Shown piece after piece: positions 9,932-18,796 of a stretch of DNA of 64,000 nt (positions within the stretch are counted from its first letter, which is position 1; every line of letters begins with the position of its first letter). The position numbers and the translations under genes were made by a program. Under the pieces are notes generated by a model. That model did no database searches, was not told the origin of the DNA, and worked only from the letters and a program-made list of their open reading frames with translations. Source of the stretch: Acidobacteriota bacterium (GTDB lineage: Bacteria; Acidobacteriota; UBA6911); the NCBI GenBank assembly GCA_963664705.1, contig OY761556.1:1600001-1664000 (forward strand), written 5' to 3'.

Positions 9932-11860
9932 ATGGCAGCCGGTGCACTTAGCAAGGTCATCGAGGTTGACGATTCGAAATGTGTGAATTGTCATACATGC
10001 ATTTCAGTTTGCCCCGTTAAATATTGCAATGATGGCAGCGGCGATACGATCCGCCTGAATGATTCGACCTGCATCGGTTGTGGTGAGTGCCTGTCGGCCT
10101 GCACGCATGGTGCCCGGATGCCCAAAGACGACCTGCCCGCGTTCCTCGATGCTGCGAAGCGCCGTGAACGAATGGTCGCGATTGCCGCGCCTGCTGTGAT
10201 TTCATCATTTCCCAACCGACATCTCAACCTCAATGGCTGGCTCAAGACAATGGGTGTTGAGGCTGTGTTTGATGTGAGCTTCGGTGCCGAATTGACAATC
10301 CGTTCCTACCTGGAGCATCTGCAGAAGAACCAACCTAAATGCATCATTGCGCAGCCGTGCCCGGCGCTTGTCACTTACATCGAAATGTATCGGCCGGAAC
10401 TCCTCAAATACCTGGCGCCTGCAGATAGTCCGATGCTGCATGCACTGAAGATGATCGACCGCTTCTACCCGCAGTACAAAGGTTACCGAAAACTGATCAT
10501 ATCGCCGTGCGTCGCCAAGAAGCGCGAATTCGATGAGGTCGGAATCGGTGATTATAATGTCACGATGTTGGCGCTGCAGGAGCACTTTGATGCTGCGCGG
10601 ATCGACCTGGGGTCATTCTCCGCGATCGATTATGCAAACCCGCCGGCTGAGCGGGCAGTCCTGTTCTCGACACCGGGCGGTCTGCAGCGAACGGCGGAAC
10701 GCTGGAATCCAAAACTGCGAAATGCCATCCGGAAGATTGAGGGGCCACACACGGTCTACCACTACCTCGACCATTTGGACGAGATGGTTCGCCAGGGCAA
10801 GGCGCCCGTCGTCATTGATTGTCTGAATTGCGAGATGGGGTGCAATGGCGGGACTGGCACCGGCCTTCGCTCCAAGTCGCCCGACGAGGTCGAATTCCAC
10901 GTGGAGGAGCGCAATAAAAAGATGCAGGCGCTTCACAAAAAACGCGGAATGATGAGTGTCCGTTCGACCAAGAACACGATTGAAGCGCTTGTCAACAAAT
11001 ACTGGGAGCCGGGACTCTACGACAGAAAATACGTACAACGATCGGATGCCTTCAGGATAAAGGTTCCAAACCAGGTTGAGCTCAGGAAAGTATATGAGCT
11101 GATGGGCAAATATGGAGAGGAACACCTGTACAATTGTTCATCGTGCGGCTACAACTCCTGCGAGAAGATGGCGACGGCCATTTTCAATGGGCTGAACAAG
11201 GCGGAAAACTGTCATCACTTCCTCAAAAGCGAGCACGAAAAAATTGTCGCGAGAACAGAGTTGGCTGTGAAGGAACGCACGGCCGATCTCGAGGATGTAT
11301 TCCAACGGCAGAAGACCATGACGGAAAACCTCGGCGAGCGGCTGGGCATGGTTGCCAGCGCGGCTGAGGAAATGACTGCGACGATCAGTGAAATTGCGAG
11401 CAACTCCGAGCGGGCTCGGGGTATTACCGGCGGGGCAGTGGATGAGGCCGGCTCGGTGTCCGCGTTGGTGAAGGAGTTGAGTGCTGCTGCGACCCAGATT
11501 GGCCAGGTAACAGAAGCTATCTCGGAGATCTCCGCGCAAACAAATCTCCTGGCTTTGAATGCCACCATCGAGGCAGCGCGAGCCGGAGCCGCGGGGAAAG
11601 GATTTTCGGTGGTAGCCAGCGAAATCAAAGACCTGGCGACACAGACATCCACGGCGGCACAGGATATCAAGAATCGCATAGCCGGAATTCAAACCTCTAC
11701 TCGGGACGTGATGGGTGGGATTGAAGGAATTAACCATGCCATTTTTGATATCAATTCGGTTGTAAGCTCGATTTCCGACGCTATCCAGCAGCAGTCGACC
11801 GCTACCAAGAGCATTGCCGAAAACATCACCGAGGCTTCGCATGAGGTCAAGAGGATCTAG
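9932..11860 (+). CDS. Soluble [FeFe]-hydrogenase-like sensor fused to a methyl-accepting chemotaxis domain (group C sensory type)
   Basis: Two ferredoxin motifs ([23 protein letters not shown]), H-cluster-like motifs [14 protein letters not shown] and [11 protein letters not shown], FeS domain CSSCGYNSC, and MCP signature [17 protein letters not shown]; no TM helix. Confidence 0.88.
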
Positions 11861-12112: not shown

Positions 12113-12886
12113 ATGTATCCTGATCGCTTTGCCCATGGATTAAGAATAGGATTCTGGCTGTTGCTGCTGATTACCGCATGGGTCAGTTTTGGAATGGCAC
12201 AAACCGCAGCTCAAACACCCCAGGCCTCCCGGATGACCGAACTGGATATAAGGAGCGGGATGGGACCGGAGTTTGAGAAGTTTTTGAAAACTGATTTTGT
12301 TCCCGCGTTGAAAAAGGCCGGAGTAAAGGACCTTAGCGTATTTAAGACGGCGGTCTTTGGACCGGCAAACCGATACATATTGACTTCACCCATAACGGGC
12401 CTGTCGGAACTGGATAACCCGAATCCCCTCGTTAAGGCAATCGGGCAGGACGGCGTGAGCAATTTGATGGTCAAGATGCAACAATTCGCTGAAAGCGCGC
12501 GCAATGCAACGTTCGTAAGCGTGCCGAACCTGGCGATTGATCCTCCGGCCGGCTATGCCGGCACGATTGGCTTTGAAGTAAAGATGGCTATAGCTCCGGG
12601 CCACGATGTGGATTACTTCAAAAATGCAAAGGCAGCAATGGATGTGGTCCGGAAGACCAATGCCAAAGGCGCGTACGCGATACGCATGGGTCTGGGCGGC
12701 AATCCAAACGAATTTCGCATTCTTGTACTGCTTGATTCTTTCGCTGACATGGAAAAATTCGGACAGTCGTTCGGGAAGCTGGCGACCGAGGCCAAGCTTG
12801 CTCCTATGACGGATGTCGTAACGCATGTCGAATATGCCATCTTCCGGTATCTCCCGGAGTTGAGCATTGCCGCCCCTGCTCAATAG
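12113..12886 (+). CDS. Exported hypothetical protein, two tandem alpha/beta (NIPSNAP-like) domains
   Basis: GGAGG RBS, signal peptide, and two similar ~110-aa halves (IRSGMGPEFEK / IAPGHDVDYFK). Confidence 0.65.
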   Translation: MYPDRFAHGLRIGFWLLLLITAWVSFGMAQTAAQTPQASRMTELDIRSGMGPEFEKFLKTDFVPALKKAGVKDLSVFKTAVFGPANRYILTSPITGLSELDNPNPLVKAIGQDGVSNLMVKMQQFAESARNATFVSVPNLAIDPPAGYAGTIGFEVKMAIAPGHDVDYFKNAKAAMDVVRKTNAKGAYAIRMGLGGNPNEFRILVLLDSFADMEKFGQSFGKLATEAKLAPMTDVVTHVEYAIFRYLPELSIAAPAQ

Positions 12887-12904
12887 TTGCGGCTCGGGGC
12901 CTAC

Positions 12905-13230
12905 TGGGCGCCGCCGTCCCGGCGTCATCAACACTATTGAAGTGGCCACGCTCTTGCCGGCGAGACGGCTAGTGCCGCATATTATTTGTTCTACGCCCTG
13001 CGATGCGATTCCTTGCTGGGTCGAATCCAATCCAGCCCCGGCAGGGGCGATCAGCAAGTAGCCAGGGGTGAAGCGTAGCGAACCCCTGGTAAAGATAAGC
13101 GCTAGAAAGAGCCCTGAAAGGGCGAAAGATCGGCGCCTTCTGCCCCCCCTTCGGGGCTGTTGTTTCACTTGGGTCGCAGGGCCTGGAGCAAATAGTATAT
13201 GCGGCATAAGCCGGGACGGCGGCGCTCCCG
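12905..13230. repeat. Nested REP/MITE-like element
   Basis: Outer inverted pair GGGCGCCGCCGTCCCGGC / GCCGGGACGGCGGCGCTCCC; inner 13034-13158 unit bounded by AGCCCCG...CGGGGCT with hairpins CCAGGGG...CCCCTGG and GCCCTGAAAGGGC. Confidence 0.7.
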
Positions 13231-13233
13231 GTG

Positions 13234-14892
13234 CTAGCGCCAGTCGTCGATGCGTGTAGCCCCTCCCAGCATATTGCTTTTTCCCAGCATGAAGTCTGTC
13301 ACAAACCAGGTGGTCTGGATTCCACCTCCGGCCACAACAATATTGACTGAGGATGCCTGACTGAATGCCTTTGTCTTCTCCCCTGAAGGGTACTGAGTTT
13401 TTTCGACATTTTCTGCAAACCACTTGTTCAGCTGGTCTTTCGTTTTGAAACCCAGGCTGTCCTTGAGAAGCGCGGCAACAGATGGATCCATAATGACGGT
13501 GGCCGAACCCATGGTCAGCGCCTGCATTTCATCGGCCATCACCAAATGAGCGGGATGGTCGCGCACTGCCATCACTACACTGGAAATATAGGTCCAGCCG
13601 ACGCCCACGGTAATCACGCTCTCGTTTGGCTTAAACCCCATCTGCACATGTAGAGGCTGCCAGCCTTCGGGCAGGCCCTTCTCATTTTCCGCAATGCAGA
13701 CGTTGTTGTATTGCATGGTGCTTCCCAGGCTGCTCCAGGTCGTTTTTTCGCTGTGCAAACCTCCGATGGTTTTCGACATCAGAGTGTAGGCGCGGCCAAT
13801 AACCGCATTTGCTTCATTATGCGGCCCCATGACGTTGGTGCCGTAATTCATTCCTATTTCGTCGCGAATGGGCCCGTTGACCACAATAATGTTCGCCATA
13901 GAGGATGTGGAATTTCCAAACGGTATGTGGTTGGCCAGGGCGAGGATCACCGGCAGATACTCACGTTTGGCGCCGGCCATTACGGCGCAGGTTGCCACCC
14001 TTTCCACGGTAACTTCACGTTTGCCTCCCGGCCAATCCAAGGTCTTGATGACTTCCGTTGGCTTATGCGATGTGCCTTTCAGCATGTCCGCCACGCGTTC
14101 TTCAGTCGGGAGAACGATAGGAAGGTAGTCGGTCCAGTCCTGGTCCTTGAAGAAACGCTGCAGGTTCTCTTCTGTATCCGGCCCGAGGAATCTGGATTCG
14201 GATGGCGAGGGTTCCGGCGCTGGTCCTTTGTATTTTTCTCTCTCGGTCAGTGGGAGGGTCAGTGCGTCGATGAAAGCCTGCATCATCGGTTTTCCGCTTA
14301 CAACGTCCCTGGCCTCAAATACATATTTGTGGTGAACCGATTGCGGCTGCCCGGCCACCGGGAACGGAAACGAAATAAATCGGATGGGTGATCCGTTGGT
14401 ATACAGGAAGTCGTGCCCCTGGGCATATTTGATGATGTTGGATGCTGCGCCTCCGACGGTGGGGATGTGAAAGTTTTGTTCCAGGGTTTTGCAGTTTCGG
14501 CTCACGGCCGATGTGCAGCTGTCTCAACCCGATATTCCGATCATGGCTGCCTGGCCTTTCTCTGAGATTTCCTTCCAGAGTTCGGGCTGATCCTGCATGT
14601 AGGAGCCCTTGATGGTTCGGATCTCCACTTTCACGCTCGGCATATTCTGGGCAAACCAGGTCTTCATCTCCGCATAGATGCTGGGGGCTGCCTGGGGGCC
14701 TCCCCAGCCGATATCCACGAGATAGATGGTTTTTCCTTCCAGCGTACTGAGTCTCGGGGTTAGCGGAACTCGATCCACCATTCTATTCGGCGGCGTCGGA
14801 TTCAATACCCTCAATTTTTCCGCACAATATGCGGTGGAATATAAAGCGAGAAGAAGAATGACTGAGGCCGCGGGCCCTATCTTTTTTATCAA
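13234..14892 (-). CDS. UGSC-family selenoprotein (552 aa with Sec at TGA 14526-14524); joins ORFs 14524-14892 and 13234-14505
   Basis: The two ORFs are in frame across one TGA: ATA TCG GGT TGA GAC AGC TGC ACA = I-S-G-U-D-S-C-T (UxxC). C-terminal TDYLPIVLPTEERV and ANAVIGRA segments match this family. TTG start after GGAGGT. Confidence 0.85.
14490..14517 (-). promoter_or_regulatory. Candidate bacterial SECIS hairpin
   Basis: mRNA just 3' of UGA reads UGCA-CA-UCGGC-CGUGA-GCCGA-AAC-UGCA; the upper stem starts 12 nt after the UGA and has a G-containing loop. Confidence 0.65.
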
Positions 14893-15149
14893 ATTGCACC
14901 TCCGCTTTTAAGGCTGCTAATGCGTTAAAGGAATTGGAGTGGTTCCTGCCTGTCCTGGCGCAACTGTAGTGAATCCTGATCGTGAAATACAAGCGAAATG
15001 ATAGGGGTAATGAAGCAGTAAGACCGGCATGGCAAGGTATGGTGCAAAGAATCTGCTCATTCCTTTGCCGGGAAGACTGTGAAGGGAATCCTGGCGCCCC
15101 AAGCGCATCCGGGACGGTCGAAGTCCCAAATGCGCTTGGGTGGTATAGT

Positions 15150-16625
15150 CTATTTCATCGATTCGGAAGCAATTTGGTAATGGCGCCTTGACGGATCCTT
15201 TTGAAATTTATCCATGCAGTATTGGGAGCAGAAATAATAGGTCCGGCCTTGATAGGCGATTTTCCGATCCATGGCCTTTGCCGGGTCCACCTGCATGCCG
15301 CAAACAGGATCGGTGGCGCCTGCCGGTTCGGGCATCGGCTCCATGGCTGCGGCTCTGAGCCGGCTTTCCGAGTCGATCAGGAAATTGCCTGAAACAACGA
15401 TCTGTTCACCCGGCATCAACCCATTGGTAATTTCAATGAGATCTCCCATGCGCCATCCTGTCTCCACCCGTCGCGATTCAAAATGACCGTCGCCGCGAGA
15501 TACAAATACTGTTTTGCTGCGGCCCGTATCCAGAACGGCGACAGAAGGAATCGCAATGGTTGGAGGGTAGTGTACCGGGAGTTCCACATTCGCAAACATA
15601 TCGGGGCGAAGCCGGAATCCAGGATTATCGGCTTCGAGTCGGACTTTCAAAGTCCTGGTAATCGGATCGAATTGCGGAAGGATATTCGTTACCCTGGCGC
15701 TGACGCTCGTGCCCTGATTCGGAAGATATATTTTGACAATTTCTCCCGGCCGCAGGTGTCTTTCCTCGTTTTCAAATATATCCACAAGGATCCATACGCG
15801 GCTCAGGTCGGAAATGCGATACAGCTCATCCCCTTTGTTGAAGCGCTGGCCGTCGCTCACCTTGCGGGTCAGGATGAAACCTTCTGCCGGGGAGGTGATC
15901 TCTACCTTTTCCTCGAACTGGCGGGTGTCCGCGATCTGCTGGATCTGCCGCGCCCCCATCCCGAGATTGCGCAGAGCGGCCTTGTACTGCTGCAATGTTT
16001 GATTGAATTGAGCGATCTGGTCTTTTTGAACAGGATTCTCCTTTCCCGTCGTTTGAATCCGGTCCATGGAACTGAGGCCGTAAAGGAGGGACTGTACGCC
16101 GGCGAGAAATTCAGGGCTGAAAAACGTTGCCAGGACTTCGTTCTTGCGCACAAAGCTGCCGGTTGAATTGGGCATCGTGGAGGTGATCCAACCATCCACG
16201 GTGGCGTTAATCACATAGGTTCGAGTCTCATCCGGAGCAACGCGGCCTACGGCCCGCAGTGTGTTGGTGCCGCTGGATCGCTCGACCGTTGCCAGGCGAA
16301 CGCCAATGAGCTGCTGTTTTGCCAGGCTGATATGAAGGGCAGGCGGATCCAGTTCTTTGCCGTCATTGGCAACCGGATTATCCTCCGAATCATCCTTTTC
16401 CATGGGCACGAGACGCATGCCGCAGGATGGACAATCGCCGGCCTTGTCGGAAGTGTATTGCGGATGCATGGGGCAGGCGTAGCGGAGCATTTTTTGCCCA
16501 ACCGAAGCGGACACAGCTTCTCCACTGTTTTTACTCCTGTACCAAACTCCTGCATAAAATGCAGCCATGACAATTAGGACCAGAATTGCTATTTTTGCGG
16601 CTTTCATTGCAGCTCCTGCTGACAA
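15150..16625 (-). CDS. CusB-like heavy-metal efflux RND periplasmic adaptor with HMBD and YHS domains
   Basis: YACPMHP...CPSCGMRL, LRPDMF, GNFLIDSES, and C-terminal YHS TDPVCGM...YYFCS. Confidence 0.9.
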   Translation of the reverse strand: MSAGAAMKAAKIAILVLIVMAAFYAGVWYRSKNSGEAVSASVGQKMLRYACPMHPQYTSDKAGDCPSCGMRLVPMEKDDSEDNPVANDGKELDPPALHISLAKQQLIGVRLATVERSSGTNTLRAVGRVAPDETRTYVINATVDGWITSTMPNSTGSFVRKNEVLATFFSPEFLAGVQSLLYGLSSMDRIQTTGKENPVQKDQIAQFNQTLQQYKAALRNLGMGARQIQQIADTRQFEEKVEITSPAEGFILTRKVSDGQRFNKGDELYRISDLSRVWILVDIFENEERHLRPGEIVKIYLPNQGTSVSARVTNILPQFDPITRTLKVRLEADNPGFRLRPDMFANVELPVHYPPTIAIPSVAVLDTGRSKTVFVSRGDGHFESRRVETGWRMGDLIEITNGLMPGEQIVVSGNFLIDSESRLRAAAMEPMPEPAGATDPVCGMQVDPAKAMDRKIAYQGRTYYFCSQYCMDKFQKDPSRRHYQIASESMK

Positions 16626-16711
16626 ATCGGTTGGGGGATCCCTTCACCAGCAATCTGTCCCGGAGATCTGCGAGTCGGGACAGATTGGGTGAGGGGAAAA
16701 AGATGGCCAAG

Positions 16712-18796
16712 CTATTTCACAATCAATGGCCGCATCATGTCATGCTCCTCATGTTCCAGGATATGGCAATGATAGACATACTCATGCCCGCCTGTTCTCG
16801 GGCTTTGAGGTACGACAAAGGGAACGGCAGGCAGGTCGAATTTTGCAATCACCGTGATGACTTCACCAGGATTCATCTTGATGGTTTCCTTCCAGCCCAC
16901 TTCATCCGGTTCCGGGCCACGGGCCGCACCGCTGGGTGTCAGCACACCGCTTACCTGTTTGAACGGTTGACGAGAGAGCACCTGCATGTTGACCAGGTGG
17001 AAGTGGATCGGATGCGTATCGGCCGTTAGATTGAAAATCCGCCACGCCTCGGTACTTCCGGCTGCCACAACTTCCGTCGGCGGATCGGCATAGGGAATCC
17101 CGAATCCAAAAGCAGTTGGTGCCATAGTTCCGATCATTTGGATGAGACGACCGTAGGAATCAAACGCTTCATTCAATGTCAGCTGTCTGGTTGGAATACC
17201 AGCCGGAACGGCAAGCGGAGGAATGGGCGCCACTGTTGTGGTATAGGGTACCAGCGGCTGCGGATCGAGATTCAGCGGATTCAGAATCGGGCCTGCCGGC
17301 TGTGGATCAGGCGTTATCGCCGGAACGACCTTGATCCGGACCACATTCCGAGTATCCGGCCCCGTGCTCGGCAATGGCTGGATGGGATTGTGAGCATTGC
17401 CCAGATAGTAATCGTTGGTGGGAGCCCCACCGGGGAATGGAGCCGGGGCATCGTTGTAAAGCATGAACTCCTGGCCAGCCTTGCCGGTGAAATCAATAAT
17501 GATGTCGGCTCTTTCTGCCGGCGCCATCAACAGGTTTCCGGTGAAGGTCGCGGGGTTCGCCGGCAAGCCGTTTGGATGGGTTGTTTCGGTCAGCAGGAAT
17601 CCTGCTTCATTTCCGATGTGGATGATCTGCGGTCCTATCGGTGTACCCTTGGCGGCAAATCCGGTTTGAGGATCCGTGACGACATCCGCCCCTGTGGCTA
17701 CCCGGAACAGGTTGAGGTTCAGAACGCGCGCATTACAGGCATTGAGGAGCAGGAATCGATAGCGCTTGGCCTCAACTGTGATCAATGGGTACACGGTCCC
17801 GTTTGTCAGCATCGTGTCACCATAGAATTCGGGGATGCAGGAGGGATCCGGAGGTGTAATTGTCTTCTTGCCGTTAAATAAACGATATAGCCTTGGATCA
17901 TAAATATGCGCATACCACAGACTGCCGATTCCTTGGACGCCGGGTTTCATAATGGTCGCCCAGGAGGGATCCGTAACAGGCGTTGTTGCGCTGACAAAGA
18001 TCTTGTCCTGGAAGACAAGCGGGATGGTGCTGGCCATACCAGGGATTTTGCCCGCCGCTACATAGGCATCGTTGACCGCATCAAGGATAAGATAAGCGGT
18101 GGCAATTCCGGCATAGGCATTGGTGCGTGTTATGCCATGGGCATGGTCGTGATACCACAAAAGCCGGGCACTCTGGTTGTTCGGATAGAAATAATCGGCT
18201 TGTCCAGGGACCATCGGCTGCAGCGTGATATTGTCAAAAACGCTTTTGGGGCCATTGGAGAAGCTGGGGCCTCCCAGGCCGTTCGGATCAAACCATTCAA
18301 AGGGACCTCCATCACTGAGCCAGGGTACAAATCCGCCATGAATATGGGTCGCGATGCGATTGGTGGACAATCCATCGCTGGGCATGAGCTGAGTGGCATC
18401 AACCGGAATAATCGGCTGACTGGGAAGGGAATTGGTGAAACGAATTCTAGATGCCGTGCCGCGCCTGGCGAGAATAAAGCCGCCCAGGTGGGTTTTGACG
18501 GGGTTGGTTGTATCCCAATAACCCCATAGCCTTGTGGGGGGAAGTGAAGGATGCAACTGGTCTGTGAATTCGCCAACGGTAACCTGATAATAGCTGGTGC
18601 CGGGGAATACTGGATCGGGGGCAGGATTCAGAATGGGAATTCCCCCGGGCCCAATGCCACGGAGCGGCTGGATCCACTTCGTCAGATTCCCGCTGTTTGC
18701 AAAGGCACAAGCTTCGCGGAGGGCAGCCCGATAAGCCAGAATGCCCGCTGTGCCAATTGCTGCGGTTTTTACAAAATCACGTCGTGTTAGGTGCAT
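16712..18796 (-). CDS. Tat-exported multicopper oxidase (CotA/bilirubin oxidase-like)
   Basis: Twin-arginine signal TRRDFVK; Cu motifs HIHG, WYHDH, HPIHFH, HCHILEHEEHDMM. Confidence 0.93.
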   Translation of the reverse strand: MHLTRRDFVKTAAIGTAGILAYRAALREACAFANSGNLTKWIQPLRGIGPGGIPILNPAPDPVFPGTSYYQVTVGEFTDQLHPSLPPTRLWGYWDTTNPVKTHLGGFILARRGTASRIRFTNSLPSQPIIPVDATQLMPSDGLSTNRIATHIHGGFVPWLSDGGPFEWFDPNGLGGPSFSNGPKSVFDNITLQPMVPGQADYFYPNNQSARLLWYHDHAHGITRTNAYAGIATAYLILDAVNDAYVAAGKIPGMASTIPLVFQDKIFVSATTPVTDPSWATIMKPGVQGIGSLWYAHIYDPRLYRLFNGKKTITPPDPSCIPEFYGDTMLTNGTVYPLITVEAKRYRFLLLNACNARVLNLNLFRVATGADVVTDPQTGFAAKGTPIGPQIIHIGNEAGFLLTETTHPNGLPANPATFTGNLLMAPAERADIIIDFTGKAGQEFMLYNDAPAPFPGGAPTNDYYLGNAHNPIQPLPSTGPDTRNVVRIKVVPAITPDPQPAGPILNPLNLDPQPLVPYTTTVAPIPPLAVPAGIPTRQLTLNEAFDSYGRLIQMIGTMAPTAFGFGIPYADPPTEVVAAGSTEAWRIFNLTADTHPIHFHLVNMQVLSRQPFKQVSGVLTPSGAARGPEPDEVGWKETIKMNPGEVITVIAKFDLPAVPFVVPQSPRTGGHEYVYHCHILEHEEHDMMRPLIVK

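Follow-up and report, generated by a model that had tools for sequence, protein, structure and literature searches.

Does the TGA between two open reading frames on the minus strand of an Acidobacteriota genome end one gene, or is it read as selenocysteine (Sec, U) within a longer one? The question was raised by a locus in a 64,000-nucleotide stretch (the window) of an Acidobacteriota bacterium of the UBA6911 lineage, contig OY761556.1, positions 1,600,001 to 1,664,000. The two table-11 frames, one of 122 amino acids with a TTG start (14892..14524) and one of 423 amino acids with a GTG start (14505..13234), lie in a common frame. An earlier note on this DNA had joined them through the single TGA into G-U-D-S-C-T, and the joining was found to be true on the minus strand, the note having named no strand. 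The whole gene runs from the TTG start at 14892 to the TAG stop at 13236-13234 and has 552 codons with one in-frame TGA. Translation of 14892..13234 with TGA read as U gave 552 residues with no further stop, and the sole recoded codon was U123 (...AAMIGISG-U-DSC-TSAVSRNCK...). The region 14300-14900 was identical (0 differences) in contigs of two public runs from which this DNA may derive; therefore, the TGA was not taken as an assembly slip. One raw-read run placed no read on this DNA. It is highly probable that 14892..13234 is a single gene in which the UGA is read as Sec, and that its 552-residue product is likely exported and likely works as a selenol/thiol redox enzyme.

The residue at the UGA column was examined among the homologues, an alignment that the earlier note had put forward as a check. 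In the host genome (6.89 Mb, one contig), a six-frame search with the read-through protein gave 39 matches, and 30 of them held exactly one TGA. When these paralogues were rebuilt to full length, U fell in a single alignment column in 30/30, within the motif G-x-U-x-[SG]-C or G-D-U-G-S-C; the latter, classical form was present in seven own-genome paralogues. The identity among the 30 aligned Sec paralogues was 23-82%, and the sequence was conserved on both sides of the TGA. In addition, a 31st Sec paralogue was found at C1:1726784-1728505 (L059:7004-8722, minus strand). Its interpretation as a Sec-less fragment was rejected, as the paralogue was intact: it had 573 residues and a signal-peptide-like leader, and its U138 stood in G-D-U-G-S-C. 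Four other full-length paralogues of the genome had L, S, N or M at the Sec column, and none of the own-genome paralogues had Cys there. Relatives were scanned with one genome per species, and at least 590 were found in Acidobacteriota, Chloroflexota, Actinomycetota, Thermodesulfobacteriota, Alpha-, Beta- and Gammaproteobacteria, Latescibacterota, Verrucomicrobia, Rokubacteria and Bacillota; 77 foreign loci were kept for the codon and neighbour counts. The aligned codon was TGA in 65 of these 77 loci, TGC or TGT in 11 and CTA (Leu) in one. The alternation of Sec and Cys with conservation on both flanks is the standard signature of a selenoprotein.

The machinery for Sec decoding was present in the genome as well. 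The earlier note had pointed to selA, selB, selC and selD, and all four were found: selA, selB and selD in two copies each, all above the curated cut-offs, and selC as two copies of tRNA-Sec with the anticodon TCA. Because of the Sec/Cys alternation at the column, the conserved flanks and the Sec machinery, the UGA at 14526-14524 (minus strand, residue 123) is predicted from the frame and the homologue alignments to be, almost certainly, a selenocysteine codon. One selD copy itself held an in-frame TGA (C1:2046792-2047721), and a compact selB-selA-selD-tRNA-Sec set was located at 3.07 Mb (C1:3072623-3078305). Among the genus relatives, 16 of 18 showed one selB match at E ≤ 1e-60. Moreover, all 18 same-genus genomes had 8-45 matches to the read-through protein at E ≤ 1e-20, with one TGA in nearly all matches listed, and the orthologues of the window gene in these relatives showed 77-91% identity over residues 1-552 with one TGA each. 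Elsewhere in the class, a match was present in only 2 of 12 genomes.

A stem-loop resembling a selenocysteine insertion sequence (SECIS) was located at 14490..14517 on the minus strand. The hairpin UCGGC/CGUGA/GCCGA, which had been described as lying 12 nucleotides (nt) downstream of the UGA, was present exactly at that distance. It consists of the inner stem 14511-14507/14501-14497 with the loop CGUGA (tcggc-cgtga-gccga at 14511-14497), and RNAfold gave an outer stem of 4 base pairs (bp; 14517-14490). The loop has G and then U at positions 2-3 and begins 18 nt past the UGA; both the G-U and the distance fit the bacterial SECIS consensus in a 2026 review (PMC13188914). A positional hairpin was counted when a perfect stem, 5 bp or longer and with three or more G-C pairs, enclosed a loop of 3-8 nt containing a G and began 9-18 nt after the codon. 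It was found after 23 of the 30 paralogue Sec codons, compared with 2079 of 16593 control codon positions (12.5%); a binomial p-value for 23/30 would exaggerate the significance because the paralogues are related and not independent. The stems nevertheless varied by subgroup (UCGGC/GCCGA, CGGCGA/UCGCCG, GCCGGC/GUCGGC and GGGGCG/CGCCUC), and the hairpins of the subgroups sat in registers one or two bases apart. The G-D-U-G-S-C paralogue group had a longer stem and a larger loop instead. The second SelB might serve another SECIS class. When the genome was screened crudely for further read-through frames with UxxC or CxxU, 524 candidates came up, 83 of them with a hairpin; they were mostly noise and were discarded, and the candidate within the window (about 50086, minus strand) translated into low-complexity junk.

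The protein is built, in order, of a leader, a UGSC domain, a linker and a C-terminal domain of about 320 residues. The UGSC domain (residues 29-187; 14332..14808, minus strand) has a flavodoxin/CheY-like alpha/beta fold and matched Pfam PF24696 with 38.0 bits against the cut-off of 25. This match and the U-x-x-C motif upheld the family identity that had been proposed. The same Pfam model was matched above the cut-off by 34/34 family members, and the equivalog model NCBIfam NF041046 (UGSC_fam) gave 24.7 bits for the window protein, below its curated cut-off of 125. In U123-D-S-C126, both motif positions (U read as C) were invariant across 67 UGSC-domain sequences; Cys126 (14515..14517, minus strand) is the proposed resolving cysteine. 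The AlphaFold2 model of the whole protein, built on a 34-sequence alignment, had a mean predicted local distance difference test score (pLDDT) of 90 and a predicted template modelling score (pTM) of 0.87, and it placed the UGA position between the strand 115-121 and the helix 124-141. VIA-align of the N-terminal domain returned generic flavodoxin, CheY and periplasmic-binding-protein folds, with Z up to 10.6 over residues 50-223. Foldseek of the whole model against the PDB gave FtsZ, lumazine synthase and others, which were rejected as generic alpha/beta resemblance (query TM ≤0.2). MukB, the sole PDB sequence match with the family profile, was rejected at E 1.8.

The C-terminal domain (residues ~230-552; 13237..14205, minus strand) carries the motifs of the domain named Unknown_1 in Figure S1A of PMC2398784. 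It belongs to no Pfam family: over residues 190-552, Pfam gave no match in the window protein or in any of the 34 family members. Folded alone with 80 sequences, it reached pLDDT 94 and pTM 0.93. Foldseek with this model gave no row at E ≤ 0.001, and VIA-align against 48,161 chains gave none at Z ≥ 8; the fold of a class I fumarate hydratase was rejected as too weak, with the best Z of only 5.6 over 87 residues. The modelled domain thus seems to have no clear solved structural relative in these searches, which is not proof of a new fold. The invariant or near-invariant residues of the domain were D255, P262, T263, A300, M305, P314, G340, G366, R367, E402, E404 and G522. The ESM Atlas, searched with the table-11 C-terminal piece, returned only unannotated clusters of about 354 amino acids. 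The domain alone was found in 3181 clusters at 50% identity, with lengths of about 420-460 amino acids for truncated forms, about 530-570 for full-length forms and about 345-370 for free-standing forms, and a few of about 710 and 1250.

The N-terminus MIKKIGPAASVILLLALYSTAYCA, with the letters as the earlier note gave them, has two lysines, a hydrophobic core and small residues at S-T-A/Y-C-A, and the best 10-residue Kyte–Doolittle mean of the core was 2.85. It passed the leader heuristic, namely a basic residue in the first 9, a 10-residue hydropathy of at least 2.0 and small residues after the core. Residues 1 to ~21-24 (14821..14892, minus strand) are accordingly classed by the heuristic as a predicted Sec-type signal peptide, and the structure model has a low-confidence detached helix at residues 2-20. 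A Shine-Dalgarno sequence GGAGG (14899..14903, minus strand) was read 6 nt ahead of the TTG start, and none comparable was found at the next in-frame start (TTG, codon 27). By the same heuristic, 26 of the 30 own-genome Sec paralogues had a signal-peptide-like leader, one had a twin-arginine leader (SRRSFLK) and three had none. The leaders of the paralogues differed in sequence, and all stood ahead of the conserved domain start K-I-T-V-L-N-P. Among the foreign relatives, the leaders were of the Sec type, of the Tat type (NRRKLLSLLG... in Acidiferrales and others) or absent, and most proteobacterial, actinobacterial and Chloroflexota relatives had none. These features suggest that the window protein is likely exported.

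By analogy, the protein is likely a selenol/thiol oxidoreductase distantly like selenoprotein B, and the redox role is predicted because of the UxxC motif and the neighbouring genes. Selenoprotein B (PF07355) comprises GrdB of glycine/sarcosine/betaine reductase and PrdB of D-proline reductase, and it has a local pattern in common with the window protein. In PrdB/GrdB proteins from the genomes of two relatives, a strand, Sec, a helix with a downstream Cys and then an E-x-x-G-I-P-T strand follow one another, as in UGSC. The hhalign comparison of the 67-sequence UGSC profile with a 9-sequence PF07355 profile gave a probability of 77% and E 2e-5 over 66 columns, with U/C on U/C. However, the selenoprotein B enzymes are cytoplasmic, whereas the window protein has a leader, and the remainder of the proteins could not be aligned. 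Pfam GRDB had no match in the own genome, but the control also matched nowhere. No pyruvoyl partner of the GrdE/PrdA type was seen among the recurrent neighbours scanned, in which no search was aimed at it.

The neighbouring genes were counted around 35 own-genome loci and the 77 foreign loci. In the own genome, the recurrent neighbours were TonB-dependent barrel proteins (10), aldehyde:ferredoxin oxidoreductases (7) and molybdenum hydroxylase subunits (4). The aldehyde:ferredoxin oxidoreductases, of the tungsten-enzyme family, lay within 6 kb of the seven paralogues, and the molybdenum hydroxylase neighbours of the four paralogues were large subunits; L036, L044, L056 and L063 were among the loci with one or the other. 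In the foreign loci, the commonest neighbour was a thioredoxin-reductase-like flavoprotein (Pyr_redox_2, CATC/CASC) in 7/77; in 5 of these loci it was the next gene on the same strand, and its length was 299-317 amino acids in six and 833 amino acids in L128. The grd operons likewise carry a thioredoxin-reductase-like gene. Furthermore, SelD-like genes were found in 3/77 foreign loci and genes of pyrroloquinoline quinone (PQQ) dehydrogenases in 6/77. The thioredoxin-reductase-like neighbours in other phyla offer a testable hint at the electron donor.

A possible course of events can be put together from these elements. The small hairpin 12 nt past the UGA would recruit SelB with Sec-tRNA(Sec), and the TTG-initiated leader would direct the protein through the Sec translocon, with a cut near S-T-A/Y-C-A. 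In the periplasm, Sec123, which stands at a helix start after a beta-strand in the predicted structure, might make its attack on a substrate that the C-terminal domain, Unknown_1, holds in place. The adduct would then be resolved by Cys126 with formation of a selenenylsulfide, and the Sec123-Cys126 bond would be re-reduced by a dithiol donor. Such a cycle would mirror the logic of selenoprotein B in the glycine and D-proline reductases.

Several results weigh against this account. As to the hairpin, the 42-nt window after the UGA was only at the 16th percentile of the windows of its own gene, and the hairpin of the window gene alone is thus within chance. The minimum free energy after the UGA had a mean z of only -0.7 over the 30 paralogues, which is a weak SECIS test, and the simple hairpin was missing after 7 of the 30 Sec codons. 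The signal peptide rests on a heuristic, and its cleavage site is ambiguous, with Y at -3 for an A-E cut. The profile match with selenoprotein B extends over 66 of about 190 columns, single sequences gave a probability of only 14-21%, and Pfam GRDB had no match at E up to 1 for the 34 family members. Neither Cys nor His is invariant in the C-terminal domain, and no catalytic fold could be recognised in it. No operon partner, reductant gene or recurrent neighbour was found beside the window gene. Moreover, the thioredoxin-reductase-like neighbours occurred in 7/77 loci only, and in none of the loci with signal-peptide-like leaders.

The simplest alternative is that the TGA is a true stop, with two genes encoding a secreted peptide of 122 residues and a cytoplasmic protein of 423 residues from the GTG at 14505. 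Gene callers handled the best 120 listed homologues in this way, and TGA serves as an ordinary stop in the genome, with several paralogues, for instance, ending in it. However, the GTG start would fall inside the helix after the UxxC, within a domain (residues 29-187) that is matched by Pfam on both sides of the TGA. A single TGA at one alignment position in 30/30 paralogues as diverse as described above, with conserved flanks, and Cys codons at this column in 11/77 foreign loci also speak against a stop, as does the presence of the Sec machinery; this alternative is considered most improbable. With the UGA read as Sec, the product might still not be released to the periplasm, being either held by an uncleaved signal anchor or made in the cytoplasm from the TTG at codon 27. 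The imperfect cleavage motif would agree with this, and the three leaderless Sec paralogues and many leaderless foreign relatives show that proteins of this fold function in the cytoplasm; a reductant of the cytoplasm is also implied by the thioredoxin-reductase neighbours of other loci. On the other hand, GGAGG stands ahead of codon 1 and not of codon 27, and leaders of unrelated sequence were kept in 26/30 paralogues. Twin-arginine leaders occurred in one paralogue and at least 12 foreign relatives, and PQQ dehydrogenase genes lay in 6 foreign loci. Non-release is therefore regarded as unlikely.

The chemistry leaves more room for another explanation. The Sec/Cys pair might serve a reaction other than a cleavage like that of selenoprotein B, such as that of a peroxidase or disulfide isomerase, a two-base isomerase or racemase, or the sensing or binding of ligands by a diversified family of periplasmic receptors. 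The recurrent neighbours scanned showed no partner subunit of the pyruvoyl type, and the fold of the N-terminal domain is also like that of periplasmic binding proteins and receiver domains. In addition, 31 diverged paralogues, ten of them beside TonB-dependent receptor genes, resemble a radiation in substrate recognition, and Sec has been lost from four paralogues (L, S, N, M) with no Cys in its place, so there are members that function with no redox chemistry. Against this, the U-x-x-C spacing with an invariant Cys, the neighbours like thioredoxin reductase and the aligned Sec in the PF07355 proteins speak for a redox cycle in which a dithiol acts as the donor. Other chemistry is a possibility to be kept in mind, though the redox cycle resembling that of selenoprotein B was preferred.

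The family has been reported before. The UGSC-containing protein is a major selenoprotein family, among the most abundant in aquatic metagenomes (PMC2398784), and its fusion with the conserved domain Unknown_1 was already described by Zhang and Gladyshev in 2008 in PLoS Genetics (PMC2398784). The novelty implied in the earlier note was thus not borne out, as both the family and the two-domain fusion had been published. The domain order of the published fusion, UGSC and then Unknown_1, is the same as that of the window protein. Supplementary Figure S1A of PMC2398784 aligns Unknown_1 as AVNGVMAGCRPEYMP...NGP.... Compared by eye, its A-V/I-N-x-V-M-A-G-C-x-P-E-Y-M-P...V-N-G-P/S corresponds to A-[IV]-N-A-V-M-A-G-A-x-P-E-Y-F-P...V-V-N-G-P-I-R in the window family, and the conserved Cys of Unknown_1 (MAG-C) is Ala in the latter. 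The published material consisted of marine reads, together with a few genomes in which Unknown_1 stands alone, and the passages and supplement of PMC2398784 that were consulted mention neither signal peptides nor dozens of paralogues in one genome. The stand-alone UGSC protein (PF24696; NF041046, about 147 amino acids) has the domain and the U/C-x-x-C motif in common with the window protein; unlike it, the window protein has U-D-S-C, a leader and the extra domain of 320 residues. UGSC was given as a selenoprotein without known function in the 2007 Olavius paper (PMC1976440), it was listed without a function in a 2022 review (PMC9312934), and it was still without one in the 2026 review (PMC13188914). 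The window gene adds to this published, functionally orphan kind of UGSC/Unknown_1 selenoprotein.

No literature on exported or massively expanded UGSC fusions was found in a search with subscription journals outside its coverage. The 31 copies are a large number but no record, because 57 and 63 selenoprotein genes have been reported for the largest bacterial selenoproteomes (PMC13188914). It is conceivable, though rather doubtful, that at least 31 periplasmic selenoenzymes in one bacterium form an undescribed class of exported reductases like selenoprotein B, with a substrate-holding domain whose fold has no solved relative, radiated to many compounds outside the cytoplasm. If true, this would be selenium-dependent extracytoplasmic metabolism at a scale undescribed for any organism. 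The genome is in any case a practical system for finding the function, with 31 paralogues mostly bearing leaders and high-confidence models (pLDDT 90 and 94).

The annotation of the fused form is affected as well. The best 120 database homologues listed were hypothetical proteins of 349-427 amino acids whose coverage of the read-through protein did not exceed 77%, and because of these lengths and this coverage, they all start after the UGA. The expectation that gene callers would split the gene was thus confirmed for these homologues. As a result, annotation drops the predicted catalytic Sec domain and the export signal in the best 120 listed relatives.

Some paralogues were clustered, with a tandem pair at 3542946-3546682 and three copies within 6758057-6774538. 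Two near-identical copies of one paralogue were found at C1:3995147-3997511 and 6758057-6760421, each with a downstream DUF4352-like gene, which suggests a recent segmental duplication. A small exported DUF4352-like protein (177-205 amino acids) directly adjoined six paralogues and was absent beside the window gene. Its copies lay at L050:8751-9362 (+), L045:17465-18034 (-), L061:6406-6969 (-), L044:8751-9362 (+), L044:14594-15124 (-) and L046:8739-9353 (+). The DUF4352 match was weak and was obtained in one copy, and the shared motif was ...YVLARV/IKF/RFEY...EGWV.... A similar protein of about 190 amino acids was found beside relatives in three Thermodesulfobacteriota/Deltaproteobacteria loci.

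Within the window, the selenoprotein gene had unrelated neighbours, namely copper-resistance genes, an FHA-trypsin protein and a secreted protein of 257 amino acids without an assigned family. A spacer of 347 bp (12887-13233) separates the convergent secreted-protein gene (12113-12886, +) from the selenoprotein gene. It has G+C-rich hairpins on both strands (13142-13157, +; 13123-13111, -), and a CCGGGA...TCCCGG repeat stands directly past the TAG stop of the selenoprotein gene. A promoter and terminator scan of 12900-15200 gave no promoter-like site, and its 3 terminator-like sites, where 2.4 were expected, were not above shuffles. Upstream of the selenoprotein gene, at 15150-18796 (-), a CusB/HlyD-type adaptor is followed by a multicopper oxidase, and the adaptor combines a heavy-metal-binding domain with a YHS domain at its C-terminus. 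Farther off, at 9932-11857 (+), a protein of 642 amino acids combines 4Fe-4S ferredoxin motifs, a region like the large subunit of [FeFe]-hydrogenase and a methyl-accepting chemotaxis domain, and it is possibly a redox- or H2-sensing chemoreceptor.

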